IMG/VR virus record: IMGVR_UViG_3300029448_000008
Length of the DNA: 25,001 bases
DNA from: an uncultured virus (IMG/VR IMGVR_UViG_3300029448_000008)
Taxonomy: Duplodnaviria > Heunggongvirae > Uroviricota > Caudoviricetes
Reading direction: 5' to 3' (one strand)
Shown here: positions 7,055-25,001 of the stretch, one piece after another
How the letters are laid out: each line of letters starts with the position of its first letter
How positions within the stretch are numbered: position 1 is the stretch's first letter
Position numbers and translations under genes: made by a program
Notes under the pieces: model-generated
What the model was told of the DNA's origin: nothing
Database searches by the model: none
Seen by the model: the letters and a program-made list of their open reading frames with translations, nothing else

Positions 7055-7848
7055 TATTTAAGAATCTGTTCTGTTGTTTGATTACCCATAAAAAAGTCTC
7101 TATGCGCATTTATATTTGGTATCAATCTAACCCACATGTTTTTAAATGCTTCTGTTTTATCTATTGATGGGAATGCTAAATCATTTTGTGCACTTACACA
7201 ATATTGACCCCATTTTTGATCTGCAACTTCCCAAGTAAATAAAGGATGTGCATATCCGCCCATAAGCATTTGTCTAAGTATATACCACTCTAATGCTTGC
7301 TTTACATATACATTATCAGGAACCATAGGGTATCCATCATCATCTGTAGGGTAAGCATTATAGTGTATTTTAAGAGTTCCTTTTTCAAAGTTTGTTTGTA
7401 TGTTACCATTATTTATTATATAGTAATCACCTCCATAAGGACTATTCTTTGTACTCCTTAATGTTAAATTACTAGAATTATTACTAGTATTATTAACATC
7501 TGTAGTCCAAGCAGAACTAAAAGTTTCACTTGTTGTTCCATTCGGAGTCATACCCGTAGTTCTAGCAGCATTAGGTAAATCATACCCAGCTGTATCAGTA
7601 CCATACATTAACGCAGATCCATTATATTCTACTTGTATTATATTTAATAAATCCGCAGGAAGTGCTGCTTTATGACTAGAAATAGTTACAGTTGATGCTT
7701 TTCTTTCTGTAGTAGAAAGAGTTCCTATATAATCTAAAGCTTCGCCTATCCATTCCATGGCATCTAATACCCATGTTTCATCATTAATACGTAAGTCTCT
7801 AAAGACTTTAGAAATTACATGCTTTGCGCTAATTATTTTATAGTTCAT
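7054..7848 (-). CDS. Tail tubular / ring protein (crAss-like Ttub)
   Basis: 264 aa. Motifs ISAKHVISKVFRDL, EWIGEALDYIG, HKAALPADL, IQTNFEKG..KIHYNAYPTDDDGYPMVPDN...ALEWYI are recognised from crAss-like tail tubular proteins, and the gene lies directly upstream of the Tstab-like gene. Confidence 0.75.
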   Translation of the reverse strand: MNYKIISAKHVISKVFRDLRINDETWVLDAMEWIGEALDYIGTLSTTERKASTVTISSHKAALPADLLNIIQVEYNGSALMYGTDTAGYDLPNAARTTGMTPNGTTSETFSSAWTTDVNNTSNNSSNLTLRSTKNSPYGGDYYIINNGNIQTNFEKGTLKIHYNAYPTDDDGYPMVPDNVYVKQALEWYILRQMLMGGYAHPLFTWEVADQKWGQYCVSAQNDLAFPSIDKTEAFKNMWVRLIPNINAHRDFFMGNQTTEQILK

Positions 7849-8282
7849 TTTTTTATATAATTTAAAAATGCAAACTCATCACTTTGTATTAAGTTTGAGA
7901 GTGCTCGTTTTATACCATTTGGTCCACTGGTCGGAGAAAATTTGTACACACTTTTGTTTGGTACTTTACATCTTCTTTTAGCCCAATACCATCTGAACCA
8001 GTGATCATCTGTATAATATACTACTTTATCTATACCTTGTGCTTTTAACTTTTTTGTTTCAAAGTAATTAACACTTTTCTTATCAAAATTTCTTTCTATT
8101 CTTCTTATGCTTATTGTACCTAGTTTATATCCTAAGTAAAACTCACTTCCTTCTAAAACTTTTGCTACTAATTTTTTATTAAATTTTGATATAATATACT
8201 TATAAAGAGTATATGTTACATCGGTGTCTGGATACTTTTTTTTATAGTATGCAAACATATCTTTTGCTCCATGTCTATTCAT
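7845..8282 (-). CDS. Basic IHF/HU-like protein of the crAss-like tail gene block
   Basis: 145 aa, K/R/Y-rich. FNKKLVAKVLEGSEFYLGYKLGTISIRR resembles the HU/IHF helix + LGxF/I strand. Position matches the IHF-like gene upstream of Ttub in crAss-like phages. ATGA overlap with the next gene. Confidence 0.65.
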   Translation of the reverse strand: MNRHGAKDMFAYYKKKYPDTDVTYTLYKYIISKFNKKLVAKVLEGSEFYLGYKLGTISIRRIERNFDKKSVNYFETKKLKAQGIDKVVYYTDDHWFRWYWAKRRCKVPNKSVYKFSPTSGPNGIKRALSNLIQSDEFAFLNYIKK

Positions 8283-9261
8283 CTGGTTCTACTTCTTCGT
8301 TTTTGTTTAATTGATTTTCTATTTGATATTCACCCGCTAATATAGATTGTGTAATCATCTGTATCATATCAGCTGTTACTGGGTAATCCATGTCATCATT
8401 ATAACACGGTTCACCTAAGTATGTAAAGCCTCTTAAGTCGTTTACATCTTCAAATATCGCTCTAACAAACAATTTAGGAAGTAGATAATCTGTTCCTAAT
8501 ACAATATCTGCAGTAGGAATATTTAATGTATAGATTCTATCGTTTTGATAGAAGTACTTAGGGTTAGCTTGATTGTACTTTGTAAAATATGCATACTTTG
8601 AATTTCCCGGGGTAATTGGTATAAGATCTACTTTTTCTACAATTTTCTTTGTAGGATCAATATCTCCTGTAACAAGAGTAATAACCACATCTGCACTACC
8701 TCCTATAGTAGCTTTAGGTATTGTTATAGTATCTCCTATTAAATATCCAGATCCTATTCCTGTAACAGTTATAGCAGTTACAGCACCACCGGATACAGTT
8801 AAACTAAGAACAGCTCCTGTTCCTTTACCACTTGTAGTAGTAGCAACGTTTGTATAGTTATTATTTGTACCATCACTTGTATTTGTAGTAATAGATGCAA
8901 CTAATTCATCAGCTGTTACTGATAAAGATCCGTCGTATATATTTTTAAAATACGCAACCTGAAAAAAAGGAAGTCCCCTTTTTAATCTTACAGGATCTGG
9001 TACTTGACTGTTTGATTTATGTAGTCCTTGACCGTTTATAGCTGCAGAAAACTCTATAGAGTCATTAATGTTTACAATAGAGATAGGAATTTCTATTGTT
9101 TGTATAAATTGATCAGGTAGATAAGTGTTTCTTTCTTGGTCTCTTCTAATTAACAAAGACCTATAATATTTAATTTGAAACTTAAGACGCTCTATGTATG
9201 CCGCATTCGTACCTCTGCCAGCAGCATCAGCTATATTATATGCGATTTCATTTAGAGTCAT
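8275..9261 (-). CDS. Structural ring-type tail protein with an internal G/T-rich beta-module insertion
   Basis: 328 aa. The N-terminus MTLNEIAYNI...IKYYRSLLIRRD and C-terminus PKYFYQNDRIY...VRAIFED...CYNDDMDYPVTADMI resemble crAss-like ring proteins. A compositionally distinct segment lies at ~8656-8925. Confidence 0.65.
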   Translation of the reverse strand: MTLNEIAYNIADAAGRGTNAAYIERLKFQIKYYRSLLIRRDQERNTYLPDQFIQTIEIPISIVNINDSIEFSAAINGQGLHKSNSQVPDPVRLKRGLPFFQVAYFKNIYDGSLSVTADELVASITTNTSDGTNNNYTNVATTTSGKGTGAVLSLTVSGGAVTAITVTGIGSGYLIGDTITIPKATIGGSADVVITLVTGDIDPTKKIVEKVDLIPITPGNSKYAYFTKYNQANPKYFYQNDRIYTLNIPTADIVLGTDYLLPKLFVRAIFEDVNDLRGFTYLGEPCYNDDMDYPVTADMIQMITQSILAGEYQIENQLNKNEEVEPDE

Positions 9262-9283: not shown

Positions 9284-9910
9284 TCATGCACTTTTCTTTT
9301 TGTTTACTTTAATGTCTTTTGATTCTATAAGTGTGTAAGTAAAACTGTTACTCCACACATTTTTAGCAATATTAGCTAACTCCATAAACTTTTTAAAGTC
9401 ATCAGCAGCTGCAATTACTTGGCATCCAGCAGACCATTTATCTATTTGTTTAGATTTTTTGCCTGCATGTTTAGTAGCTCTATGGATATTTATTCCAAAT
9501 AATCCAATCTCTACTGAGTCTTCATTTTTATCATACACCCCATCTTTATTCTGATCTCTGTAGACTTTTACTGGTTTCATTTGTCTAAGAGCTTCGTACT
9601 TTCCTTGATGCAATCCTATTTTATGAGACCCTCTATATTGACCAGGTTTAAGTATTGCTACTCCTGATTTTTTGAGTATATTTTTTACCCAATGTGTACC
9701 AGGATCTGTTGTACATTCAAACTCCTCATACTTCCATTTTCCTTTTAATTTATAAGAAAGTGTTAGTATATCATCAAAGGCATTAGTTACTTTGTTTTTA
9801 GTATTAGAGTTTCTAATTCCTACAATGTTTAAATTATAGTCTCCGTTGCTAAACCATTTATAACCTTTAGCTTTTACTGCTTGTTCAAGTATAGAATTAT
9901 TGTACTGCAT
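9284..9910 (-). CDS. Putative peptidoglycan-active enzyme, L,D-transpeptidase (YkuD-like) fold; candidate endolysin or virion lysin
   Basis: 208 aa, basic. GINIHRA-(x)-WSAGCQV gives H-x16-SAGC, matching the L,D-transpeptidase His/Cys motif HX14-17[ST]xGC. Also has LNIVGIR, FDD, TTDPG and FTYTLI motifs seen in phage members. Confidence 0.7.
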   Translation of the reverse strand: MQYNNSILEQAVKAKGYKWFSNGDYNLNIVGIRNSNTKNKVTNAFDDILTLSYKLKGKWKYEEFECTTDPGTHWVKNILKKSGVAILKPGQYRGSHKIGLHQGKYEALRQMKPVKVYRDQNKDGVYDKNEDSVEIGLFGINIHRATKHAGKKSKQIDKWSAGCQVIAAADDFKKFMELANIAKNVWSNSFTYTLIESKDIKVNKKKSA

Positions 9911-10670: not shown

Positions 10671-11225
10671 TTATACCCACTGATTATTAATCAAAGTAAT
10701 ATAAATTATATCAATTGTATCTTCTTGATACCATTTTTTAGTATTCTCATCTAGTGATATAGTAGTGTAATTTGTTTTATTTCTAGCTATATCATTATCC
10801 ATTCCCCAAGAAGTTTGTACTAGTATACAGTTGTTATTACACAAGTTTTTAACATCACTGCTAAAAGACTCTAATCTTTCCGTAGTATCTGAATCAGCAT
10901 CATTATACACTCCATCAAATTTATCTGTTAAATTACCTATAGCATCTTTCCAATCAGCATGTATAACTTCAACATTAGATTTTCCATCTGCCCACTCTAC
11001 AGCTTTGTCATAAATATCTTTTTCTATTTCTACTATAACATGTTTACTAGGATTATGTGTTTGTATTTGTGTAGCAGATATTCCTAAACCAAAACCAATT
11101 TCTAATATATTACCACCTTTTTGTGCTACTATATCAGCAACAGAGGTTTCATACAAAGCAACATCATTATGCATAATAATGTTATTATTTTTATATATAC
11201 TATCTGTGTTTATTATTATTCCCAT
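10671..11225 (-). CDS. Class I SAM-dependent methyltransferase, guanidinoacetate-methyltransferase/RMT2-like
   Basis: 184 aa. KGGNILEIGFGLGISA...HVIVEI...EWA...DWKD...FDGVYND parallels GAMT/Rmt2 motifs (KGGRVLEVGFGM, HWIIEC, FDGILYDT). Confidence 0.8.
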   Translation of the reverse strand: MGIIINTDSIYKNNNIIMHNDVALYETSVADIVAQKGGNILEIGFGLGISATQIQTHNPSKHVIVEIEKDIYDKAVEWADGKSNVEVIHADWKDAIGNLTDKFDGVYNDADSDTTERLESFSSDVKNLCNNNCILVQTSWGMDNDIARNKTNYTTISLDENTKKWYQEDTIDIIYITLINNQWV

Positions 11226-12505: not shown

Positions 12506-12988
12506 TTATTTTTTATAAATTATACAAATAGCAATATATCTATTATTATTTGTAGTGTTATTGTAACCGTGTTTAAAATCAAAATTATTTAAATACATAA
12601 TACCTTTAGAAAGACTTGTTGGTGCTTGTCCTATTTTAACATTCTGGTTATTATAAAACTCAGTAGATGTTTTGCTGTCAATTAAATTTATAATTATAAC
12701 ACCAAGCATATTTGAATTATCATAATGAGGTATTAAATTAAACCCTGGTTCGTTTTTAATAATCTCCAAATGAATGTAATATGGAACAGATATTTTAGTA
12801 TCAATTACACTTGTGTCAAAACTATCTTTTACTTGATTTAAAGCATTTTCATCTGTACAAAAGTGTCTTCCCTTATCTTGTTCTTTATAACTTAAATTAG
12901 GATAATCTAAATCTGGTAATGAACTTAACGACGCTTGCCACAAATCTAAATCATCTATATAACTTGTGCTGTTAATTGTTAAACTCAT
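12506..12988 (-). CDS. 2OG-Fe(II) oxygenase superfamily protein
   Basis: 160 aa. PGFNLIPHYD (HxD), hydrophobic strand GVIIINL, STEFY, distal His in FKHGY and Arg in NRYIAI give the HxD...H...R triad plus 2OG-binding Arg. TAATG overlap with the fibre gene stop. Confidence 0.7.
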   Translation of the reverse strand: MSLTINSTSYIDDLDLWQASLSSLPDLDYPNLSYKEQDKGRHFCTDENALNQVKDSFDTSVIDTKISVPYYIHLEIIKNEPGFNLIPHYDNSNMLGVIIINLIDSKTSTEFYNNQNVKIGQAPTSLSKGIMYLNNFDFKHGYNNTTNNNRYIAICIIYKK

Positions 12989-15900
12989 TATTTAATTTGT
13001 TTTTTTAGTTCTTCTACCTCTGCTTTTAAATCTTTTATTGCTTCAATTAGATAACCTGTTATGTTACCATACGCTACCGCTTTATATTCATTATCATCGT
13101 TTACTAATTCAGGTGCTATTTTTTCTAACTCTTGAGCTATAACACCACTACCTTTTTTATCCTCTTTAGTAAAACTAACACCACGCATATCATAAACTTT
13201 AGAACCGTCTAATGTTTTTATATCTGTTTTTAATCTTTTATCTGAATAAGCTACAACATCTGAACTTGCTGTTACCGTACCTGTAATACTTATAGAAGAT
13301 GCAAAAGACGCTCCACCTAATACAGAACTACTAGCTGGATTTAAGTAATAATTAGTATCGTTTGAATCGTAAAATATCGGTGCTCTTACCGAGCCGCCTG
13401 CTAATAAAAAACCAGGTGTTCTTAATGTTTGTGCTCCAGTTGTGTTAAAGTTTGTTGATGGGTTTGCTGTAAAATAAGAACTACTTGTAGTTTGTGCTAC
13501 ATTCCAGTTTCCTAACCAATCTATACTATCAGAATAATAACAAGCACCATGTACTTTAGACACATGAACAGTAGCATAACTCCAAGATGAATTTACATCT
13601 CCAATTGCAATACATTTTCTTTCATTACTTCCATCATTCCTTCTACCAAGACGAACTGCTTTATTTAAAGAACCAATAATTTGAACACCAGGATTATGCC
13701 ATTGTGTATTACTTGTACCTGAATTACCACCACTATTCCAGTTGTGAGCACCAATTATAATTTTTGAACCTGCATCACCAGAATATTCGTATATGTCTAT
13801 TTCCATATACATCATATCATAATGAGCTAATGTTCCTGGTAAGTCGATTACAATTTGACCCGTTGTACCACCACTACCATCCCATGATGCTTCTTTACCT
13901 GGATATACTATTTTTGGATGTGTTATATCACCTAAACCTAATTGACCCGTTGTGCCTATAGATATAGAACCTGATGTAACCATAGATCTATCACTATTGG
14001 TGCCATCAAAGAAATAACTCGTATTATCAGAATCATAGAATACTGGTGCTCTAACACTTGTATTAGACTCAATTTTACCTAAATTACTTATTCTAGCTAC
14101 GTAACTACTACTGTTAGTATTTTTTATTACAAAAGCATTTTTTTCAACCGTGTTACCTAATCCATCTGTTGAATGAGTTTCTACAGACATTGTTTCAGCA
14201 TATAAACCAGAACCATTATCGCTATAACCAAGAATTACATAACGACCACTTGGAAATGACAATCGGTTTGGTGTTGCTGTAGCACCATACAAACCATCAG
14301 CTACATAACTTGAATTAGCACCTCCTCCTTCTAAAGAATAGCCACCCGCTGATCTTAGTTTTCTATTAGTAAGTGCTGTTGATTCGTTTAAAAGAACATT
14401 TCCACTAGTTACTCTAAAGTTACCAGCAACCTGAACAGAAGTATCAAAATTAAATTGATTACTAGCTATTTCTATACTATGATAACTATCACCATCATAC
14501 CAATATTCTTTATAAGGACCATAAGCACTACCAGTGTTGGTTCCTTTATATATTGCTGCATAACTACCGTTAGCTCTTGCGTCTCTATATGCAAATGCTG
14601 CGTCACCACTACGATATTGATTTAAGGTATGACCCCCTTTTATATGAATATTTTTTTGGTTAGATGTACCAGCTGGATCAACATAATAAGTTGTATCATT
14701 GCTATCATAAAACAATGGAGCTCTTACATCAGTGTTTACAATAAGATTACTTCTTGTAATATTTACTTGACCATTTTGCAGTATGTGCATGGCTGTTTTA
14801 GAACCTGTAGCGTATGAGTCAGTAGTTGAAAAATACATCCTAGTACCATAACTACCATCTGATCTTACATATATACCAGCGTGTGAAGTAGTTCCATTGC
14901 TACTATCTGATGCGCCAAAAGTTATTGCACCGCCCGCGTGATCAGTTGCGCTATTAGGATCTAAATGTAAAGCACCTTTTCCTGTGCCTTGCGTTGTTGC
15001 GTCCCAAACTGCACCTGAGTTTAAATCTAAATCACCAAGATTACTTCTACTTGCGGGATTTAAATAATAATTTGTATCATCTTTATCGTAGAATATTGGT
15101 GTTCTAATGCTATCGTCAACATTTAAATAATGTTTAATATTTGTTAAGGTATTACTACTTTGTACCGCCCATGAACCATCATTAGATAAAGTTCCAAAAT
15201 AACCACTTTCAGTATAAACTGATCCTTCAAAGTTTCCACTACCATCAAGAAATCTTATTTGACCATAACCCGTATCACCAAACTTATAATTTAGATCACT
15301 ATCATTACCATTGTCAATAAATCTTACATTATCCTGGAAATGTAATTGATTAACTTGATCAATATCTTTACCACTCATGTTAATATGAGCATTAAATGTA
15401 AACACAGGATCTGCTGAATCGGCTACACTTAATCTAGTTGTGCCTTCAAACACCATAGTAAAAGCATCATTTCCGCTAAATCCAAAATAAGTATGAGTAT
15501 CTCCTTTGTGTGAGATATAATCTTCAATTTGAAGGTTATTCATAACGCTATTACCAGCTGGATTTACATAATAATTTGTATCATCTAGGTCATAAAATAT
15601 AGGTGCTCTAACGCTTCCACCAACATCCATTACACCAGTACCCAGAACAAAAATCATTTTCTTATAAGCGGTTCTAGCGCTACCAGCGTTGTTGTAAAGA
15701 GTTTTTGACCCTAGACTGGGGCTAGATGTTCCCGATGTAAACTGTATTTCATTATTGTTATTTTCAGTACTTATACCCCACTCAACATGTGGCTCATAAT
15801 CTGCAAATATAATACTATCACCTTCACTTGTTTGTTGTTGTATTGCTATAGCAGAACCGCTATCAGCAGTTCCAGAAGAATATAATTCTATAGCTGCATG

Positions 15901-18900
15901 GTTACCATTAGTACCACCAGCAGTTTTCTTAATACTAGTGCTACCGCTACCTAAATCAACAGTTCCTGTAAAAGTAGCAGTATTATCGCCATCTAATCTT
16001 AATGCTGTAGTTACGTTTGATCCATCATATGTTTGGAAAGATAAACTATAGTTATTTGTATCACCTTCAATTATTCTTGCATCACCATTAGCCCAGTCTA
16101 GTTTACCGCCTGATGGTAAGTCAAACTCAGTTGCAGAAACTGTTCCTGAGAAAGCTGACGCCGCTCCTCCTGATTGTGTAAAGGCTGCGTCTACTGTTAC
16201 AGCACCATTAAAATAACTAGTACCGTCATTATAAAAATCATATGATGCATGAACAGCACTACTCATTACAGCAAACTTACCTGATGTATTACCAGTATCC
16301 ATATCCATGTGATTCACTACACTTGTGCTTGCTGGATCTAAATAAAAAGCTGTATTAGCCCAATCGTAATATTTATTTGCTATTACATCTCCGCCATTTG
16401 TGTGTAAACCTCTACTACCTCCACCAGTTAATAATTCAGCTAAGGAAGGTTCATCACCATTTATTTCAAAAAACCCTGGCTTTGCCCATTGCAATTTAGC
16501 AGAAGCATCAGTAGAATAATAATGGAAAAATCTATTACCGTTATTTAATGCACTACCAGCACTACCTAATTTCCAAAAATTGCTTGAATTAAGTATTTTT
16601 TGACCAGTGTCACATCTATATATCCCTTGTAAATCAGAGCTGCCAGTTAAAGCAGTTGTGTTACTATCATTGTTAGCTTGTATAACACCAATAGATATAC
16701 ACCATACATTTAAAGGAAAACTACCTAAATTAGGATAATGGAAATAAGGGTTTGTATTAGACGTACCAGATAAATCAGTAATTTGATTTGTTCCTGCGCC
16801 AGTACCATGGTAAACATTACCTGTTGTACCAGCTAATCTTTTTATGTAAACATAAGATAAGTGAGCTTTGTTTATATCTAAATTATTTATTGCTTTTACA
16901 TAACCACCATCATAATCATTATTAGTGTCACCAGTTGTCTCTGCTGCTAATGTTCTTTCTCCATGAGGACCCGTAACCCATTTAGTAGTAATTTCACTAC
17001 CATTAAAATTACCTCCATACCAGCCTGTTTGATTGCCAGTACCACCTTCAGTCCAAGATGATGATGTGGCTTTATTTAATCTATAACCTTTGAAAGATTG
17101 ACCATCAGTATCACCTGCTTCTTTAGCAACATAAAATTCAGCCATAGAACTAACTTGATGTGGACCATAACTGCCGTGGTCAGCGCCTAATCTAAATCCA
17201 TTAGCTCCGGAAAATGTTATTGCACCTATTGTTGAACCACTATCATGAAAACCTATAGAGGATTCATCAGAAGCTTCTAAACGTATATTGTATGTATTGT
17301 TACCATTGTTAACACCAGTGCTACCTACATATAATGATTTTAATACACTATTATTGTCAGCATGTATAAAATAAGCTGTATTATTTGAGTCATAGAATAT
17401 TGGAGCTTGCATATTGCCTGTTGCTAGAACAGTACCACTACCATATACTCTAAGTAAATGGTTGTTACTCCAATGACCAATTGTTACATAATTATCATCT
17501 GAACCATCTGCATGCCAATAATAACCTAAGTATCCAGAATTTTTTGCAGAAGTTGCTTTACCAACTACAAGTATTTCTGATTCACCTTGTGTAAGATTAG
17601 CGTTGATGGCTTCTAATGCATGGTTATATGTAGATGATGCGCTATTATTAAGTCTTAATAAAGGACTACTTGCAACACCAGAAGAATTTATTGTTACATC
17701 GCTATTAAAAGTTGTTGCGTTAGCTACTGTACCACCAGTAAATGTTGCTGAAACACCTGTTAAACCACTACCATCACCACTAATTACACCTGCTGAGTTT
17801 ATATATAAATGATTTGTCCACGTGCCACTTTCTCTTGATTGAATTGAAAAATCTCCACTACCTGATACTAATCTATGTGAATCATTTGTTGTAGCATTAG
17901 CACCAGAAGCACCTATATAAAATTGACCTCCAGATAAATAAACATTGTCCGTAAACCATCCTGTTACTGATTTTACTTGACCCGCAAAAATTGCATTTTG
18001 TGATGTATCAATCGTAAGAGCTAAAGTCTCAACATTACTAGCGTTGGGTGTTATAAATTTAATATTAGAGTTTGCATCACCACCGGATAACTCAATACTT
18101 GTTTTAGATGAAGAACCTGCTTCTATATAAGTTGTTGTTGCATTAGCTGTATGACCAACTGTCGTGTTGTAAGGATATGTAGTTCCTTGAAATCTTGTAG
18201 CTGATACAGTTCCTGCAAAAGTTGCATTTTGTGATGTGTCTATTTCTAAGGCGGTTGTTTCAGCGTTACTTGCATTTTTAGTTGCAAAAGTTAATTTGTC
18301 ATTTGAGTTATTCGCATAAATACTTGCGGCGAAATCTGGTGTTGAATCAGTCCAAGCTATTTTATTATTTACGCCTGAGCCTTGTGCTAAACTTAAACCA
18401 TAAGCAGGAGTTTTACCACCTACACCTACTTTTCCTGAAAAAGTTGCATTACCACCTTCTGACATATCAAGTTGTAAAGCATTAATAGCTGAACCTCCAT
18501 CATTTCCTTGTATAAAAAAGTCTGCATTTGAAACGCTACTTTTTATTGCAAAACCACCTGTTAAGTCTAAAGCACCAATGGTAGTACCATTATCTTTAAA
18601 TCTAATATCTCCACCATTAGCATCTAAGTTAATATCTCCCTCAGCGTCAACAACAAAATCATCAACTGTTGCTATTGTTAGAAGACCTGCGCCACTTTCT
18701 GTTAAAGTTGCATAGTTAGCATCATCACCACTTATTTTTAAAGCACCATTTAATATTTTTACGTCACCAGTTGAACCAACTTCGAATCTGTGACCAGCTG
18801 CTCCACCTGTTGTTGCATCATAAATATAAAATACGTTTTCAGCCCTGGAATTATTTGTGCCATCACCACCAGTACCAAGTCTAAACTCTCTAAGATCTGA

Positions 18901-21900
18901 TTTAATCGCTAGTTCTGCATAACTAGTAGTAACAGCTTGTTCAATCATTATTCCTCTTACATCACCTGAAGAATTTTTTACGTGAAGCTTGTGGGATGGC
19001 GAATCAGTTCCAATTGCTACTTTTCCAGACGCTTCTGCTTGAACAAAGAAAGCATGTGTGCTATGATTTGATTCCACCCTAAAATCAACATCACCACTAC
19101 CTTCATTTACTACAACCTCACTTTGTGTTCCATTTTGTTTAGCTGTTAGTAGTTGTACACCATCACCATAAAAATCTATGACACCATCAGAACTTTCTGT
19201 TATATAAGTATTACTTTGCCCATCAAGATATAGTTTTCTACCAGCTGGTATTGCAAAATCTGTAGCCCCTAAAACATGAACATCCCCACTAACTTTAAAT
19301 CTATCACTTCCACCTTGAACAAACTTTAAGACATTAGTTGAATGTATTAAATCTATGTCAGTTGAAAAGTTTATTCTACCTGAAGCCGGAAGTGTTATAT
19401 CACCAGTTACAGTTACGTGACCATCTTGTCCATCTACTGTGAATATCTGGTCTGAAGCTCCTATTGCACTAGCGTTACCACCATGTCTACCAATAAAGAA
19501 ACTAGAGTTAGCAGCTAAGGCTTGATTGTTATTTGAATCTAAGTTTACAATAAAAGAGCCGTAAGTATTTACTCTTATATCATCTCCAGTTCCACCATCT
19601 AATTGTCTAGATGTAATAGAGTGGTTTGTTTCACCACCACCATAAAAAGTAATATAGTTACCCATATTCTCTAGGTTCAACTGAGTTGCAGTTACTTGAC
19701 CTGCAAAAGTTGCGTTACCACTTCCATATAATGTCAATGGAACTACATCTGTACCAGCTGTCTTGGTTTTAAAAATTATATTACCAGCATCGTTGTTCCA
19801 TGTATTACTTATTATCAAACTACCTGAACTAGCGGCATCATAATCAATAACACCTCTATATGCAGCGGTGTTTCCAAGATATATTGATCCATTTGCATTA
19901 TTTGCACCATTAGAATCGCTCCATCCAGAAACCTGTAATTGAGCGCTGCTTGAACTACTAGCTGTTATTGATCCTGAAAAAGTTGCATTACCATCGTCTT
20001 CAACAACAAGTAGGTCTGTACCGCCTTTATTTAATGTAAGTAAATTACCAGTACCATCACCTCTAACATGAAGAACATCACCAGTAGAACTTGCGTGATC
20101 TGAGTATATTGAAACATGAGCTTGAGTATCTACTCCTGTGTGCTGTGCGTTTGTATAAAAATAACCACTAGCTTTAGTTGCGTTGGAAGTATTATCTATA
20201 TGTAAAAGTCTATTAGGACTAGTTGCGTTACCAAGACCAATATTTCCTGCAAAAGTTGCATTACCACCAGAAGCTATAGTTAATTTTGTGCCTGTTAAAC
20301 CACCTGTTGCAAATTTTAGATCTCCTTGATATGCACACAAAACTGTTCCATAATTATCTGCACCAGTAGTAGAATATAAAGCGGAAACATTATCTCCATC
20401 GTTTTCCACGAAATGTATTGCACCAGCACGACCATTTGTTGAGTTTGTTCCTTTAAAATATAAAGTTGGCACACCAGAGCCAAATGAAGCTGCAGCTGCT
20501 CCCAAGCCAATATTATCAGCTTGCACATCACCTGCAAAAGTTGCGTCACCATTTTCAAAACTATAAGTATTACCCCTGAATATAGTATTGTATGAATTAT
20601 TTCCTAGATAAAAACTACCACTTGACCAAATGTGATCACTTTGGAAATACATCGTTCTACCATCGCCGCTCGTAATTAACTCTAAAATAGTACCATTACT
20701 AGTTCCATTTTTTAATTGATGTGTTGAGGTTCCAGTATAAGTATTTAAAATTCTACCTGCAACAGTTAAATTATTTGTTAAATCCCATGTATCATCTGCA
20801 TCATCAAATATTAAACTTGCTTGTGTAACACCATCACCCCTATAAATAGATATACCAGACGTAGTAGCTGTAGCTGTATCTGGTGATCCCTGTGTTGTGT
20901 TAAGTTGTAATATATTGTCTTCAACTTCTACTGTTTGAGTATTAAGTGTTGTAGTAGTCCCGCCAACTGTTAAATTACCACTCACGGAAAAGTCACCAAC
21001 TACATTTGTTGTTTTTAATAAAGATATACTTGTTTCAGCTTGTATATTTGCGTTACCACTTGAGTGATTATAACCAATCCAACCGACGTTGTTAGCTGCA
21101 GCATCACCAAACATATAGTAAGCATCAGCTGTACTTGATTGTTGTACAACTGATCTTGTAGTACCTTTAACGTGTAAAAATGTTGTTGAGTCATAAGGAG
21201 AACCTGTAGTACCAGGACCTATAGTTAGAAGGCTTCCACCAGTAATATTACCTGTAGTTGTAATTGTATCTATATAAGCTGCTCTAAAATATTTACTTGA
21301 TGTACCTAAATCATAAGAGCTATCTACATAAGGACTAAAATTATCACTGTCCATTCTAAACCTATGACTATCTGATACTCTAAATATAATACTGTTATCA
21401 GTTGAGAACATTATTCTATTGTGATCATCTCTACCAATATCTGCAGTTGTTCTAATATTCCCTAAAAATGTTGCGTTACCATCTACATCTAAGTCTAAAG
21501 CTATTTTACTATCAGCAGTATTTTCGAATCTAAATCCAACGCCTGTAGTACCAGCTGTTGCATGCCATAAATTACCAAATGTTCTTACGTCTCCGTTAAA
21601 GTATAAATTAGCATAAGATTCTACACCGGCTTCAAATATTCTAGCTTTATGGCTTCCGTCAACTGAAAATTGTATTTGATCTTTAGATGTATCGTATGTT
21701 CCTTTTGATAATCCTGTATCAGTAAAACCTGCAAAATTTAATGATGGTGCACTTGTACTACCAATAGGTATAGTAATCTTACCTGCAAAAGTTGCGTTAC
21801 CTGAAGTATCAATCCAAAATCTTTTAGTAGCAGCGTTGTTAGCAAATACAATTTCTTGACCTGCATCTGTATCAGTTCCAAGCAAAGCACCATAAGTACC

Positions 21901-23073
21901 ACTATCATCATCTTGCACACTTATCCAAGCTTGGTTATCAGTACTTTTAAAGGCAGCAACAACATTAGTAGTACTTGAATCTACGCATAACGCTGAAGTT
22001 GAAAACTGCGTTGCACCGCCAACAAGCACATTCCCTGAAAAATTACCATCGTGAGCGTATACCGTGTGCCATCTTTTAGTTGAAGTACCTAGTGTTTGGT
22101 CAGATTGTTCATTACCTGATGGTTGAATACCTCTGTTAAATTGTATTTTGTTATCAGTTTCATTTAATGTTATTTCACCCCAGCCACTTCCAGCTGCATT
22201 ATACATTCTAAATGCTTTTCCAGTTGGAACAGAAACAATACCAGCAAAAGTTGCGTTACCATTAGCTTCAAAAGTAACTTTAGTAGAGTTACCTGGTTGA
22301 AATATCATGTCATCACTTGATCTAAGCATTAATTTAGTACCAGACGTAGCACCCTCTATATAAGAGCTAGCACCAAAGTTTACTTTCTTATCACTCGCTA
22401 ATGTAACATCTCCTGCAAAAGTTGCTGAGTGGTCAGTATTTAACGTTAATGTTAAACCACTATCAGTGTAAAATGCTAAAGGATGATTACTATAAGTTCC
22501 TATTACAGAGCTGTTGTCTTGTGTATACATTAATAACTTAGCGTCATTAGTTGTATCAAACAATTGTATTGTAGGTGAAGCCTCACCAATACTTAAACCT
22601 GTGCTAACCGAATCTACAGTACCAATAACAACATTTCCTGCAAAAGTTGCTGTGTTGTCTGCCGCTAACTTTAATACATGCGTACTTAAATTATCATTAA
22701 CATCGTCAATAATAAAATCAGTACCACTGATACCCATTGCCCATTTTTTAGTGCCAGGTCTTTCAAATTTTATATTTGGAGTTGTACCATCGGATATATG
22801 TAACTTGGCATCAATACTACTTTCATTAATTCCAACATTACCTCCAAAAGTTGCGTGTTTTGCATTGTTAATTATTAAAGCGTGATTATCATAAGCTCCA
22901 TTTACAGCAACTCTAAAATCAGCACCCCAACCTTGTAAGAATACAGATGTAGAATCTTTTAATTCTATCTGACCAATACTATTGGAGCCTTCTGATATTT
23001 TAACATAGTTGTTACCATCATTTACCTGAACTTCATCATTGAAAATAGCACCTGTAAAGAACTTCCTAGCCAT
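12988..23073 (-). CDS. Giant modular tail fibre / receptor-binding protein (3361 aa) with C-terminal intramolecular chaperone
   Basis: 10,086-bp ORF with G/S/T/N/D-rich beta-type composition, repeated GNATFAG and RAPIFYD junction motifs, and a C-terminal SDKRLK...GVIAQELEKIAPELV...VAYGNI...LIEAIKDL coiled coil. Confidence 0.9.
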   Translation of the reverse strand: MARKFFTGAIFNDEVQVNDGNNYVKISEGSNSIGQIELKDSTSVFLQGWGADFRVAVNGAYDNHALIINNAKHATFGGNVGINESSIDAKLHISDGTTPNIKFERPGTKKWAMGISGTDFIIDDVNDNLSTHVLKLAADNTATFAGNVVIGTVDSVSTGLSIGEASPTIQLFDTTNDAKLLMYTQDNSSVIGTYSNHPLAFYTDSGLTLTLNTDHSATFAGDVTLASDKKVNFGASSYIEGATSGTKLMLRSSDDMIFQPGNSTKVTFEANGNATFAGIVSVPTGKAFRMYNAAGSGWGEITLNETDNKIQFNRGIQPSGNEQSDQTLGTSTKRWHTVYAHDGNFSGNVLVGGATQFSTSALCVDSSTTNVVAAFKSTDNQAWISVQDDDSGTYGALLGTDTDAGQEIVFANNAATKRFWIDTSGNATFAGKITIPIGSTSAPSLNFAGFTDTGLSKGTYDTSKDQIQFSVDGSHKARIFEAGVESYANLYFNGDVRTFGNLWHATAGTTGVGFRFENTADSKIALDLDVDGNATFLGNIRTTADIGRDDHNRIMFSTDNSIIFRVSDSHRFRMDSDNFSPYVDSSYDLGTSSKYFRAAYIDTITTTGNITGGSLLTIGPGTTGSPYDSTTFLHVKGTTRSVVQQSSTADAYYMFGDAAANNVGWIGYNHSSGNANIQAETSISLLKTTNVVGDFSVSGNLTVGGTTTTLNTQTVEVEDNILQLNTTQGSPDTATATTSGISIYRGDGVTQASLIFDDADDTWDLTNNLTVAGRILNTYTGTSTHQLKNGTSNGTILELITSGDGRTMYFQSDHIWSSGSFYLGNNSYNTIFRGNTYSFENGDATFAGDVQADNIGLGAAAASFGSGVPTLYFKGTNSTNGRAGAIHFVENDGDNVSALYSTTGADNYGTVLCAYQGDLKFATGGLTGTKLTIASGGNATFAGNIGLGNATSPNRLLHIDNTSNATKASGYFYTNAQHTGVDTQAHVSIYSDHASSTGDVLHVRGDGTGNLLTLNKGGTDLLVVEDDGNATFSGSITASSSSSAQLQVSGWSDSNGANNANGSIYLGNTAAYRGVIDYDAASSGSLIISNTWNNDAGNIIFKTKTAGTDVVPLTLYGSGNATFAGQVTATQLNLENMGNYITFYGGGETNHSITSRQLDGGTGDDIRVNTYGSFIVNLDSNNNQALAANSSFFIGRHGGNASAIGASDQIFTVDGQDGHVTVTGDITLPASGRINFSTDIDLIHSTNVLKFVQGGSDRFKVSGDVHVLGATDFAIPAGRKLYLDGQSNTYITESSDGVIDFYGDGVQLLTAKQNGTQSEVVVNEGSGDVDFRVESNHSTHAFFVQAEASGKVAIGTDSPSHKLHVKNSSGDVRGIMIEQAVTTSYAELAIKSDLREFRLGTGGDGTNNSRAENVFYIYDATTGGAAGHRFEVGSTGDVKILNGALKISGDDANYATLTESGAGLLTIATVDDFVVDAEGDINLDANGGDIRFKDNGTTIGALDLTGGFAIKSSVSNADFFIQGNDGGSAINALQLDMSEGGNATFSGKVGVGGKTPAYGLSLAQGSGVNNKIAWTDSTPDFAASIYANNSNDKLTFATKNASNAETTALEIDTSQNATFAGTVSATRFQGTTYPYNTTVGHTANATTTYIEAGSSSKTSIELSGGDANSNIKFITPNASNVETLALTIDTSQNAIFAGQVKSVTGWFTDNVYLSGGQFYIGASGANATTNDSHRLVSGSGDFSIQSRESGTWTNHLYINSAGVISGDGSGLTGVSATFTGGTVANATTFNSDVTINSSGVASSPLLRLNNSASSTYNHALEAINANLTQGESEILVVGKATSAKNSGYLGYYWHADGSDDNYVTIGHWSNNHLLRVYGSGTVLATGNMQAPIFYDSNNTAYFIHADNNSVLKSLYVGSTGVNNGNNTYNIRLEASDESSIGFHDSGSTIGAITFSGANGFRLGADHGSYGPHQVSSMAEFYVAKEAGDTDGQSFKGYRLNKATSSSWTEGGTGNQTGWYGGNFNGSEITTKWVTGPHGERTLAAETTGDTNNDYDGGYVKAINNLDINKAHLSYVYIKRLAGTTGNVYHGTGAGTNQITDLSGTSNTNPYFHYPNLGSFPLNVWCISIGVIQANNDSNTTALTGSSDLQGIYRCDTGQKILNSSNFWKLGSAGSALNNGNRFFHYYSTDASAKLQWAKPGFFEINGDEPSLAELLTGGGSRGLHTNGGDVIANKYYDWANTAFYLDPASTSVVNHMDMDTGNTSGKFAVMSSAVHASYDFYNDGTSYFNGAVTVDAAFTQSGGAASAFSGTVSATEFDLPSGGKLDWANGDARIIEGDTNNYSLSFQTYDGSNVTTALRLDGDNTATFTGTVDLGSGSTSIKKTAGGTNGNHAAIELYSSGTADSGSAIAIQQQTSEGDSIIFADYEPHVEWGISTENNNNEIQFTSGTSSPSLGSKTLYNNAGSARTAYKKMIFVLGTGVMDVGGSVRAPIFYDLDDTNYYVNPAGNSVMNNLQIEDYISHKGDTHTYFGFSGNDAFTMVFEGTTRLSVADSADPVFTFNAHINMSGKDIDQVNQLHFQDNVRFIDNGNDSDLNYKFGDTGYGQIRFLDGSGNFEGSVYTESGYFGTLSNDGSWAVQSSNTLTNIKHYLNVDDSIRTPIFYDKDDTNYYLNPASRSNLGDLDLNSGAVWDATTQGTGKGALHLDPNSATDHAGGAITFGASDSSNGTTSHAGIYVRSDGSYGTRMYFSTTDSYATGSKTAMHILQNGQVNITRSNLIVNTDVRAPLFYDSNDTTYYVDPAGTSNQKNIHIKGGHTLNQYRSGDAAFAYRDARANGSYAAIYKGTNTGSAYGPYKEYWYDGDSYHSIEIASNQFNFDTSVQVAGNFRVTSGNVLLNESTALTNRKLRSAGGYSLEGGGANSSYVADGLYGATATPNRLSFPSGRYVILGYSDNGSGLYAETMSVETHSTDGLGNTVEKNAFVIKNTNSSSYVARISNLGKIESNTSVRAPVFYDSDNTSYFFDGTNSDRSMVTSGSISIGTTGQLGLGDITHPKIVYPGKEASWDGSGGTTGQIVIDLPGTLAHYDMMYMEIDIYEYSGDAGSKIIIGAHNWNSGGNSGTSNTQWHNPGVQIIGSLNKAVRLGRRNDGSNERKCIAIGDVNSSWSYATVHVSKVHGACYYSDSIDWLGNWNVAQTTSSSYFTANPSTNFNTTGAQTLRTPGFLLAGGSVRAPIFYDSNDTNYYLNPASSSVLGGASFASSISITGTVTASSDVVAYSDKRLKTDIKTLDGSKVYDMRGVSFTKEDKKGSGVIAQELEKIAPELVNDDNEYKAVAYGNITGYLIEAIKDLKAEVEELKKQIK
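12991..13245 (-). other. Peptidase S74 / intramolecular chaperone auto-cleavage domain of the tail fibre
   Basis: Y-SDKRLK (Ser-Lys dyad motif SDxRLK), GVIAQE, PELV and terminal coiled coil LIEAIKDLKAEVEELKKQIK. Confidence 0.88.
13334..17410 (-). repeat. Dispersed peptide repeat (V/I)RAPIFYDxxxTxYYxxPA, 7 copies
   Basis: Copies near 13334-13389, 14011-14055, 14671-14727, 15051-15108, 15556-15612, 16331-16380 (degenerate) and 17368-17410. Synonymous codons differ between copies. Confidence 0.85.
15965..22860 (-). repeat. Dispersed in-frame direct DNA repeat, consensus (+ strand) CCTGCAAAAGTTGC(G/A)TTACC, encoding GNATFAG, about 14 copies
   Basis: Exact CCTGCAAAAGTTGC at 18212, 19700, 20246, 20531, 21782, 22412, 22637. 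Variants at 15965, 17981, 18434, 19973, 21461, 22241, 22841. Confidence 0.9.
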
Positions 23074-23093: not shown

Positions 23094-25001
23094 TTATCCT
23101 ATCTTATTGATAAGAACTTTAATTCCATTAGTAGCAGGAGCATTTCCTGTAGCAAAAACAACTTGCACCCTACCTCCGGTTTTTCTAGAAACATCTGCAT
23201 GTACTGTATCACCTGATGATACTTCAATTAACTGTACCATAAATTGACTAGAATCGGTACCTAAGCCATGATTTATATGAGGTGAACTAGCACCAGAATT
23301 ATCAATATTGTATGATACAGCAGATCCATCTCCTATAGTTCCAGCAAACATTCTGTCTGTAGGTACTTCTATAGTTTTAGAAACTAATGCTGTAACGTGA
23401 CCATATGTATCTAATGTAACATCTTGTATAACTGCATTACCTGAATTATCTACAGATGCTTGTGATGATGTATCACTATGCGATATATTAACATCTTCTC
23501 CATTTTCAAAAGCTATAGTAATACCACCCCCTCCTACAAAGTCAACAGATTCTGTAGTGCTTATATTATCTACAGAAGTATTATTAACTTTTAAGTTCCA
23601 GTAGTCATAGTTATCAAGACCTGTAACACTAATTTCACGTGAGGTTCCTTCGCCTGCAGCATTACTAATAGATATATTAGTACCTTCAGTAATATTACCT
23701 ACGTAGTTACCAGAAGTATGAGTACCTAATGCTACATCATTTTGTTCTGTATGTAATTTATACTCTGTTCCTCCAGCTAATCTTTGTGACCATCTATCAG
23801 TTGATTCGTCCCAATATAAAATAGCATTAGTTGATGTTCCTCTTTCTATTTCAATACCTGAATCTTCACTAGGAGTACCAGTTTCATTACTGTTAAGAGT
23901 AATTATATTATCTTCAATTAATACAACTTCAGAATTTTTAGTTGTTTGGTTTCCTGATACAGTAAGATCTCCTTGAATAGTTACTGCTCCGCTAAAGTGA
24001 CCAGTACCATTAACATCTAAGTTATGTGTAGGAACTGATAAATCATTTGCAGGGTTAATAAGAAGTGCACCAGTACCGCTGTTGTTACTTCCTAGTAATT
24101 TAAATATAGCTGCTGATTTATATGCTCCAGATCCATTACCTTTATTTAAAGATAAACTCATAATAGAATCTTGATTAGATGCATCATATATTCTACTATA
24201 GAAACCAGCATAACTTATATCTGCCGTATTAGCACTGCCCATTGCATTTCTGCCTCTAAACTCAAGGACCCCTAAAGTGTCACTATCAACAGGAGTTCCT
24301 GCGTTTCTATAAAGAACTAAATCAGGTGCAGAAGCAGATGAAGTTTCTCTTCCCTCTAATAAAATATTTTCTGCTGTAGAATTAGATATAGATTTAATAA
24401 CAGGTGCATCTGTACCAGAAGCTGTACCAACAGTAAGCTGACTATTAATAGATACATCATTTGGTAAACCAATTGTTACAGTTACATCTGTTGATGCTTT
24501 ACCTACAGAAGTTTCTATTTCATTAGCTGTACCAACAATTCTTAAATCATCTGTAGCTAATGCAACGTCTCCGGTACCACTGTCTGCATCTACAGTTAAT
24601 GTGGTTGATATAGCATTAGTAGTTACTGCTGTTATTAAACCTTTTGCGTTAACCGTTATGGCTGGTATAGCTGTAGCAGATCCGTAAGATCCTACATTAG
24701 AGTTAACTGTAGCTAGAGTAAGAGCTCCAGCATCTGTTAGTGTAGCATCTCCAGACATTACATTATCAATCCATTTAGATGTGCCTGTATCATATAGAAG
24801 CATAGCTCCATCTGCAGGAGTAGTTATAGTAGTATCTGTAAGTTCAGCTAAAGTATCGTGAGTATCTACCTGAGCATCTACATAAGCTTTTATACTTTGC
24901 TGTGTTGCTAAGTGACTAGCGGAGTTGCTAGCCATATTATCTTCATCTTTTATAGCCGTACCACTTATGGATGTAGGTGATATTATTAGATTATTAACTA
25001 T
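23094..25001 (-). CDS. Tail fibre-like structural protein, 5'-truncated by the window edge (>635 aa)
   Basis: The frame of the 613-aa ORF stays open to 25001 (IVNNLIISPTSISGTAIKDEDN-MASNSASHLATQQSIKAYVD), so the tracked Met is probably internal. Contains fibre-type motifs IKDEDNMASNS..LATQQSIKAYVD, VGSYGSATAIPAITVNAKGLIT, IEDNIITLN, IQDVTLDTYGHVT and a C-terminal INHGLGT. Confidence 0.8.
   Translation of the reverse strand: MVNNLIISPTSISGTAIKDEDNMASNSASHLATQQSIKAYVDAQVDTHDTLAELTDTTITTPADGAMLLYDTGTSKWIDNVMSGDATLTDAGALTLATVNSNVGSYGSATAIPAITVNAKGLITAVTTNAISTTLTVDADSGTGDVALATDDLRIVGTANEIETSVGKASTDVTVTIGLPNDVSINSQLTVGTASGTDAPVIKSISNSTAENILLEGRETSSASAPDLVLYRNAGTPVDSDTLGVLEFRGRNAMGSANTADISYAGFYSRIYDASNQDSIMSLSLNKGNGSGAYKSAAIFKLLGSNNSGTGALLINPANDLSVPTHNLDVNGTGHFSGAVTIQGDLTVSGNQTTKNSEVVLIEDNIITLNSNETGTPSEDSGIEIERGTSTNAILYWDESTDRWSQRLAGGTEYKLHTEQNDVALGTHTSGNYVGNITEGTNISISNAAGEGTSREISVTGLDNYDYWNLKVNNTSVDNISTTESVDFVGGGGITIAFENGEDVNISHSDTSSQASVDNSGNAVIQDVTLDTYGHVTALVSKTIEVPTDRMFAGTIGDGSAVSYNIDNSGASSPHINHGLGTDSSQFMVQLIEVSSGDTVHADVSRKTGGRVQVVFATGNAPATNGIKVLINKIG

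Follow-up and report, generated by a model that had tools for sequence, protein, structure and literature searches.

The window analysed here is the whole 25,001-nucleotide (nt) stretch of the uncultured virus record IMGVR_UViG_3300029448_000008 from IMG/VR, and it carries a giant tail-fibre gene that is partitioned by a short repeated junction motif, the subject of this text. The phage is Crassvirales-like, with a GC content of 0.33, Pfam matches to CrAss_Ring_1 (E 6e-51) and CrAss_Ring_2 (E 8.5e-20) at positions 7054-9261 and a Crass_capsid match (E 2.4e-90) in its closest relative, record G001. In the phage collection of GenBank no close relative was found; nine records there had 2-4% coverage. 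The C-terminus of the fibre protein, of 3361 amino acids (aa), matches the PHROG tail fibre protein phrog_25848 (E 9.5e-30), all PHROGs matches being confined to the last 115 aa, and contains a Peptidase_S74 domain; from these two matches we therefore identify the gene as a giant tail fibre. The domain carries YSDKRLKTD, in agreement with the catalytic SDxxxK described in an excerpt of Caulton et al. (2024, PMC10769870). By sequence, the fibre protein had no match in the PDB at E<=1. The main parts of the gene are the following.

12988-23073, minus strand: giant tail-fibre gene, open reading frame (ORF) of 3361 aa with a C-terminal PHROG tail fibre match and Pfam Peptidase_S74
22835-23073, minus strand: N-terminal anchor region, gene nt 1-239, 90% identical to the related locus L001, with the similarity ending at the first motif copy
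13102-13245, minus strand: Peptidase_S74 intramolecular chaperone domain, aa 3277-3324 (PF13884, E 1.1e-10, 42.1 bits against a cut-off of 22)

At the peptide level the motif reads A-[T/I]-F-x-G and has 15 in-frame copies, given here from the N-terminal end, each with its preceding residue and its codons.

22840-22854, minus strand: junction copy 1, H-ATFGG, GCA ACT TTT GGA GGT
22636-22650, minus strand: junction copy 2, T-ATFAG, GCA ACT TTT GCA GGA
22411-22425, minus strand: junction copy 3, S-ATFAG, GCA ACT TTT GCA GGA
22240-22254, minus strand: junction copy 4, N-ATFAG, GCA ACT TTT GCT GGT
21781-21795, minus strand: junction copy 5, N-ATFAG, GCA ACT TTT GCA GGT, within 21 nt identical to copy 10
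21460-21474, minus strand: junction copy 6, N-ATFLG, GCA ACA TTT TTA GGG, left edge of a module also present in L005 and L010
20530-20544, minus strand: junction copy 7, D-ATFAG, GCA ACT TTT GCA GGT
20245-20259, minus strand: junction copy 8, N-ATFAG, GCA ACT TTT GCA GGA
19972-19986, minus strand: junction copy 9, N-ATFSG, GCA ACT TTT TCA GGA, right edge of a module also present in L010
19699-19713, minus strand: junction copy 10, N-ATFAG, GCA ACT TTT GCA GGT
18433-18447, minus strand: junction copy 11, N-ATFSG, GCA ACT TTT TCA GGA
18211-18225, minus strand: junction copy 12, N-ATFAG, GCA ACT TTT GCA GGA
17980-17994, minus strand: junction copy 13, N-AIFAG, GCA ATT TTT GCG GGT
17734-17748, minus strand: junction copy 14, S-ATFTG, GCA ACA TTT ACT GGT
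15964-15978, minus strand: junction copy 15, T-ATFTG, GCT ACT TTT ACA GGA, right edge of a module also present in L005

A search with the plus-strand 14-mer CCTGCAAAAGTTGC, allowing up to two mismatches, gave 13 matches from 15965 to 22854, all in one orientation and seven of them exact, against an expectation from shuffled sequences of 0.12; none of 100 shuffles reached 13. This search misses the copies at 21460-21474 and 17734-17748. The original prediction, made from the letters of the window, had counted about 14 copies: the repeat itself holds, and the count is corrected to 15 at the peptide level. The spacings between copies, the seven exact 14-mers and the direct arrangement in a single reading frame that it had reported were all reproduced (every one of the 13 14-mer matches is on the same strand), and the identical pair that it had placed at 19700 and 21782 extends over 21 nt (GGT AAC GCA ACT TTT GCA GGT), not 20. 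Its description of the intervening blocks as mostly unrelated also agrees with our comparisons, since in self-blastn of the gene similarity was limited to 21-46 nt at the motif copies; self-blastp of the fibre found nothing at E<1e-3. Over 126 sites of the gene pool described below, the consensus at the seam is A-L-T-[L/I]-D-x-S-G-N-A-T-F-A-G-x-[V/I]-T.

The shaft in which these seams lie has little structure of its own in the model of a single chain: an AlphaFold2 monomer from a 48-row alignment, covering aa 835-1135, had a mean pLDDT of 71.7 and almost no intrachain secondary structure, and Foldseek of this model against the PDB found nothing at E<=0.001. A wide search with VIA-align returned ten weak matches (Z 2.1-4.3, too weak for fold assignment), all of them triple-stranded beta-helix or spike chains, which fits an intertwined trimer without proving one. 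Three of the 15 seams are followed by a V-G-x-G-x-x-x-P-x-x-x-L loop consensus, as in NATFSG-KVGVGGKTPAYGLSL, and that consensus is described for S74 fibres in the excerpt of PMC10769870, where it is written V-G-G/N-pi-x-x-P-x-x-x-L. In our model, (S-G-N)-A-T-F-A-G-x-V would be the structural seam with which every module begins, in a tail fibre that is long, beta-helical and probably trimeric.

The codons of the motif are more uniform than the usage of the gene predicts. GCA encodes the first Ala in 14 of the 15 copies (0.45 gene-wide), ACT encodes Thr in 11 of 14 (0.43 gene-wide) and TTT encodes Phe in all 15 (0.84 gene-wide), with the exact spelling GCA ACT TTT in 11/15 copies, or 11/14 of those that read A-T-F. 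When every motif codon was redrawn from the gene's own usage in 5000 runs, the commonest 9-mer was present in 4.1 copies on average and in nine at most, against the observed 11/14 (p<2e-4). Column by column, the same permutation gave p=0.0008 for the first Ala, p=0.0046 for Thr, p=0.058 for Phe and p=0.10 for the second Ala, and the flanking Asn, Gly and Val codons of the window copies were not fixed. The codon lock thus spans just 12-14 nt or so, and the permutation against gene-wide usage that had been proposed as a check places the codon identity above the gene's own bias. Avoidance of TpA was considered as the cause of GCA before Thr and was ruled out, as Ala before a codon starting with A is GCT at a frequency of 0.63 across the genes of the window; among the fibre's Ala codons that precede Thr elsewhere than in the motif, 0.62 are GCA.

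The same spelling is found in related fibres, which we gathered from 10 related loci and from a degenerate GNATFAG scan of viral contigs (at least 125 stretches and at least 112 distinct sites). An AT-rich set of this pool, with 119 distinct motif sites in 40 fibre ORFs with a GC content of at most 0.39, was reduced by clustering of the flanks to 73 independent contexts. Weighted by cluster, the first Ala is GCA at 0.79 (background 0.44-0.50), Thr is ACT at 0.82 (0.40-0.49), the second Ala is GCA at 0.82 (0.44-0.54) and Phe is TTT at 0.96 (0.89), and codon choice is free at the adjacent Gly, Asn and Val. A phage of the pool that is 98% complete, with 63 kb, has the 12-mer seven times, always within the fibre gene. 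Among the matches listed, the exact GCAACTTTTGCA occurs at 35/56 GNATFAG sites in ORFs with a GC content of at most 0.39, at 2/29 between 0.39 and 0.46 and at 0/17 above 0.46. A locked GCC ACA TTT GCT in phages of intermediate GC content looked recurrent at first sight; it varies after clustering (22 sites, 17 contexts), and no lock can be claimed for it. From these comparisons the peptide is widespread and appears to be structural, and the locked spelling belongs to one AT-rich marine gene pool.

These distributions bear on an explanation at the protein level only, in which the motif would act only as a structural seam, recombination would occur without a target (by illegitimate joining or through long homology), selection would retain those chimeras that are joined at domain boundaries, and the codon bias would reflect translational accuracy or speed. 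This explanation accounts for a peptide conserved in every GC class of phages with codons that follow each phage's own usage, and ACT and AAC are indeed the codons preferred by the capsid gene of G001 (ACT 17/26, AAC 22/31), so that translational preference could contribute to the enrichment of both. The same capsid gene prefers TTC (11/19) and has no preference for Ala (GCA 16/30). The motif keeps TTT, in 15/15 window copies and at 0.96 in the pool, and GCA at both Ala positions against this preference, and translational preference therefore cannot explain TTT or the two GCA codons. Two internal controls point the same way. Within the same ORFs, GCAACT is found in 91/125 full-motif sites as opposed to 4/25 A-T-F sites without the following x-G, and in 97/512 sites where A-T is followed by a residue other than F; as A-T-F outside the full motif is unlocked, the lock is not an effect of codon context. 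An equally conserved repeat of the same gene, VRAPIFYDxxDTxYY, has free codons, with Phe as TTC in 3/6 of its copies in the window and in 3/3 of those in L001. The conservation at synonymous sites that the original prediction described is thus real and goes beyond what codon usage, codon context or translational preference would give, and we judge the protein-level explanation unlikely.

The repeat used as a control is an element in its own right, (V)RAP[ILV]F[YF]DxxDTxY[YF]xxP, with six copies in the C-terminal half of the fibre, at gene nt 5671, 7471, 7975, 8356, 9028 and 9694 (Pro codons at window positions 17403, 15603, 15099, 14718, 14046 and 13380, minus strand). Its copies have 59-70 nt in common at 74-81% identity with free codons, and three more are found in L001. 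One edge of the mosaic between L001 and the window adjoins a copy of this repeat, which may be another kind of seam.

The uniform spelling could also come from shared descent or gene conversion, with copies that are recent duplicates or that have been homogenised by short-tract conversion and that have no role in module exchange. Some adjacent modules do resemble old tandem duplicates (aa 1590-1620 and 1667-1697 share 32 nt at 87.5%), and the gene contains the 21-nt identical pair. However, identity ends within 21-46 nt with free Asn, Gly and Val codons in the flanks, the same spelling stands in 73 unrelated module contexts from many contigs, and inherited synonymous sites would be expected to be saturated at that divergence. 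We regard this origin as quite improbable.

A recent exchange at the motif is seen in two related loci, L003 and L004, whose fibre genes agree at 99.93% over 5974 nt and at 99.95% over 1980 nt and differ by one in-frame indel of 348 bp (116 aa, two modules of 58 aa) with both ends within motif copies. L003 resembles motif copy 1 of L004 on the left and copy 3 on the right, with the switch inside the 13 nt common to both, ACTTTTGCAGGAG, and the modules around the switch are unrelated. It had been proposed that a crossover between two copies would remove or add whole modules in frame, and this motif-to-motif indel is such a case; a crossover within 13 identical nt also speaks against the protein-level explanation.

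The fibres also form a mosaic. In a comparison of six fibres (the window, L001, L004, L005, L008 and L010) by blastn, with segments of at least 100 nt, we identified 29 common segments with 69-93% identity that differ in position and order, so that modules of 170-420 bp are common to these fibres in shuffled arrangements. Among the internal endpoints of homology, 27/108 lie within 25 nt of a motif centre, compared with an expectation of 5.9 and with no more than 15 in any of 10,000 permutations, the 108 endpoints being not fully independent because a module common to three fibres is counted repeatedly. Some edges are abrupt: a module of L004 and L010 that is 93% identical is bounded by the motif on both sides, and the 90% identity between the N-terminal anchors of the window and L001 stops at the first copy. 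Comparing the mosaic breakpoints of homologous fibres, as had been suggested, therefore gives an enrichment at the motif with sharp edges. Codon identity above the gene's own bias, related fibres of the AT-rich pool that keep the spelling and breakpoints enriched at the motif are each the opposite of what the original prediction had named as speaking against it.

At the protein level, a search of 1.84 billion protein representatives with a 301-aa segment of the fibre gave 302 relatives at E<=0.001, and in the best 150 of these 302 the matched stretches lie near motif positions at 66/108 internal starts and 49/91 internal ends. Such boundaries also speak for the protein-level explanation. The modules are also found in very different genomes: record G002, which is 98% complete, has only fibre modules and a methyltransferase-like neighbour in common with the window, which means that modules are passed on between phages of separate lineages.

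Twenty metagenome runs (marine, aquatic or seawater) from nine studies contain the stretch, and we aligned to it the contigs of four marine runs from four studies. Of the 24 loose contig ends listed, ten are no more than 25 nt away from a motif centre, where about 1.7 would be expected; this is weak support because 280 further ends exist outside these and contigs drop rare variants. One identical variant diverges from the window at 17990, in junction copy 13, in contigs of two studies. Contig joints that run from motif to motif (for example 18235 to 18433, 19723 to 20238 and 19726 to 21782) were set aside and are not evidence, as their sides have only 20-30 nt at 90% identity and joints of this kind are often due to repeats or to other organisms. 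As a separate observation, a stretch of about 100 nt at 16187-16290 (aa 2262-2296, with TGNTSGKFAVMSSAVHASYDFYNDGTSYFNGAVTV) has raised contig depth in all four runs, with a depth of 166 at one position in 11 contigs of X1, and many joints with their origin in ATFAG seams lead to it; apparently this is a module that many co-occurring phages have in common.

The original prediction had drawn attention to an inverted repeat in the motif as a possible protein-binding site of a module-shuffling system. The dyad is GCAA-CTT-TTGC, with arms of 4 bp, or 5 bp in the 6/15 copies where T precedes. As single-stranded DNA, its hairpin has -2.1 to -3.1 kcal/mol (z -0.3 to -1.9), no better than shuffled sequence, and since the dyad requires only the first GCA and TTT, it explains neither ACT nor the second GCA. 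We take it to follow from the spelling of Ala-Thr-Phe-Ala with two GCA codons, and a functional element is not supported.

In a dedicated site-specific system, a recombinase or nuclease would bind GCAA-N3-TTGC and cut and rejoin the seams as in a shufflon or cassette. Shufflons and invertible tail-fibre segments (Rci/sfx; Min, Cin, Gin) use short in-gene repeats to join alternative C-terminal segments in frame, with inverted repeats and a dedicated recombinase. The short conserved core, its partial dyad symmetry and the common orientation and reading frame of all copies would suit a system of this kind. Unlike those of shufflons, the copies here are direct (13/13 on one strand), and no tyrosine or serine recombinase was found in the ORFs scanned of the window, G002 or G001. 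By Pfam, integrase, resolvase and invertase families are absent from the 13 ORFs of the 25-kb window (0/13), in line with the earlier remark that the window has no recombinase, as well as from the 52 of 54 ORFs scanned in G002 (0/52), which has modules of the fibre pool, and from the 43 of 44 scanned in G001 (0/43). In addition, the arms are short, with a hairpin no better than shuffled, ACT and the second GCA are left unaccounted for, and the spelling varies freely in GC-richer phages. A dedicated system is thus not supported, and we consider it very improbable.

What the related records do encode are proteins of general recombination, found when the search for recombinases and annealing proteins was extended to them. 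ERF is present in both records that are at least 98% complete, G002 (98%) and G004 (99%), with E about 1e-29 to 4e-31, and in G002 it adjoins a PDDEXK nuclease of the DUF3799 family. G001 codes for an AAA_24 protein (E 9e-29) and a DUF3799 PDDEXK nuclease, and RecT was found in 0/5 related records. AAA_24 corresponds to the Sak4 family in the portion of Steczkiewicz et al. (2021, PMC8093625) that deals with it. Relaxed homologous recombination by phage single-strand-annealing recombinases is described as a source of phage mosaicism (De Paepe et al. 2014, PMC3945230; Steczkiewicz et al. 2021, PMC8093625), and the phages of the fibre pool are alike in encoding Erf/Sak4-family proteins next to PDDEXK nucleases. 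A side observation concerns G001, in which a 376-aa ORF (L143:7814-8944, minus strand) without a Pfam family directly adjoins the DUF3799 nuclease, at the place where G002 has ERF, and could be an unrecognised annealing protein.

Taking these results together, we think it rather probable that the peptide forms a structural junction and that the DNA encoding it provides microhomology for general recombination. The seam DNA, GCAACTTTTGCAGG, would be the sole stretch in common between otherwise unrelated modules, and it would therefore serve as the microhomology for joining them in frame. Within one gene, such joining would delete or duplicate modules, and between the fibres of co-infecting phages it would swap them. 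Likely mechanisms are phage single-strand annealing (an Erf/Sak4-family protein with a PDDEXK nuclease) or replication slippage between the direct repeats. Modules with the majority spelling would have the most recombination partners and would therefore spread, keeping three synonymous sites fixed across the AT-rich marine pool, and we infer that recombination, rather than some other nucleotide-level constraint, keeps the spelling. Of the options in the original prediction, the footprint of repeated recombination at the junctions is the one that fits, and general recombination at microhomology is the simpler reading.

Several points weigh against recombination at seam microhomology. Only one recent event was seen, as an all-against-all megablast at 95% identity or more, with 317 locus pairs matched, gave no second one in fibre genes; the other matches belong to an unrelated group with a GC content of 0.55 that meets the degenerate pattern in 43-aa ORFs. 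Several module edges in the window are at copies without the consensus spelling (1, 6 and 15), and no link between spelling and exchange was seen. Edges at the motif are also expected from random recombination if only domain-boundary chimeras survive. The Asn before the motif is AAC at 0.57 (background 0.24-0.31) and, like ACT, this is a codon preferred in the capsid gene, so part of the codon bias may be translational. The heterogeneous phages of intermediate GC content have no alternative locked spelling, and a convention of spelling per pool rests on one pool. The search for recombinases in the phage of the window covers 25 kb, and the enzyme-bearing G002 has little beyond fibre modules in common with it. 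Last, 13-21 nt is short for known annealing recombinases.

A stronger version of the microhomology reading, which we put forward as a tentative possibility, is that, within a gene pool of marine phages, GCAACTTTTGCAGG has become a connector standard that reinforces itself, held by positive frequency-dependent, second-order selection: recombination needs identity, and modules with the majority spelling therefore have the most partners. If it were true, silent sites would be held constant in spite of translational preference (the motif has TTT, the capsid gene mostly TTC) and across phage lineages with almost nothing but fibre modules in common, and the sequences would then show directly that selection for evolvability acts on silent sites.

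The closest precedent that we found is in T-even phages, where the conserved boxes of gp37 and the glycine-rich motifs of gp38 are described as sites of recombination at conserved motifs in an excerpt of Trojet et al. (2011, PMC3157838, citing Tetart et al. 1996, 1998). As in gp37 and gp38, variable segments are parted by short conserved motifs (15 copies here, between modules sharing only 21-46 nt), the motif is conserved at the DNA level (seven exact 14-mers, p<2e-4, 73 pool contexts) and the exchange points of natural chimeras fall on the motifs (the 348-bp indel, 27/108 endpoints and the sharp edges). Small-domain duplications reportedly arise at such motifs as well, and the title of the 1998 paper of Tetart et al. 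has the phrase 'swaps adhesin specificity'. Unlike gp37 and gp38, to which the fibre has no sequence homology (Pfam finds only Peptidase_S74, PHROGs only a generic fibre C-terminus and the PDB search nothing), the motif here is ATFAG and its carrier is marine and crAss-like, with about 15 seams per gene and modules that are re-ordered along a shaft of 3361 aa instead of being swapped at the tip. The synonymous lock is, unlike in the T-even account, quantified across a gene pool. By analogy of mechanism, not by homology, the fibre would belong with the T-even kind of recombination at motifs.

The mosaic adhesive trimer (MAT) fibres of Bdellovibrio, S74-chaperone fibres with a trimeric beta-helix, as described in the excerpt of Caulton et al. 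(PMC10769870), resemble this fibre in having a C-terminal Peptidase_S74 with SDxxxK and a mosaic make-up with a conserved presenting end and the rest diversified, and in the loop consensus found after 3/15 seams. They differ in being bacterial and in that the excerpt deals with mosaicism at the protein level, with no nucleotide-locked junctions or crossover mapping in it, whereas the evidence here is from a phage and at the DNA level. In the literature, NATFAG was met in no paper, and among the papers listed on module shuffling of tail fibres none deals with codon-locked fibre seams, judged by titles and the openings of abstracts. T-even phages have already provided the principle, and what is new here is the motif, the group of phages that carries it and the quantification.

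Tail fibres set the host range, and the very long fibre of an abundant group of uncultured marine phages is made of interchangeable modules. As the seams can be read from the DNA, they provide a rule to parse giant ORFs into modules and to predict in-frame chimeras, natural or engineered. The silent-site conservation confined to 12-14 nt is, moreover, a measurable signal for whether recombination constrains synonymous sites.

Some genes around the fibre are also of interest. The methyltransferase-like ORF near it (10671-11225, minus strand), with weak matches to RrnaAD and Methyltransf_25, has 48% aa identity to its counterpart in G002, which is also located just downstream of the fibre gene, and it may travel with that gene. 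Upstream of the fibre, a 613-aa ORF (23094-24935, minus strand) without the ATFxG motif is 86% identical to its counterpart in G001, and one 70-aa piece of it matches the interior of the G002 fibre at 50% identity; this is possibly a second fibre or an adaptor protein. The ORF at 2-7054 (minus strand), open at the edge of the window and longer than 2351 aa, matches the virion structural protein phrog_15100 (E 2.2e-37) and no Pfam family. Giant ORFs with 2049, 2224 and 4605 aa are found in related contigs too, and one of the three has a crAss muzzle C-terminal domain. Finally, a 208-aa ORF amid the tail genes (9284-9910, minus strand) matches phrog_3000 and an endolysin PHROG (E 6.6e-15).

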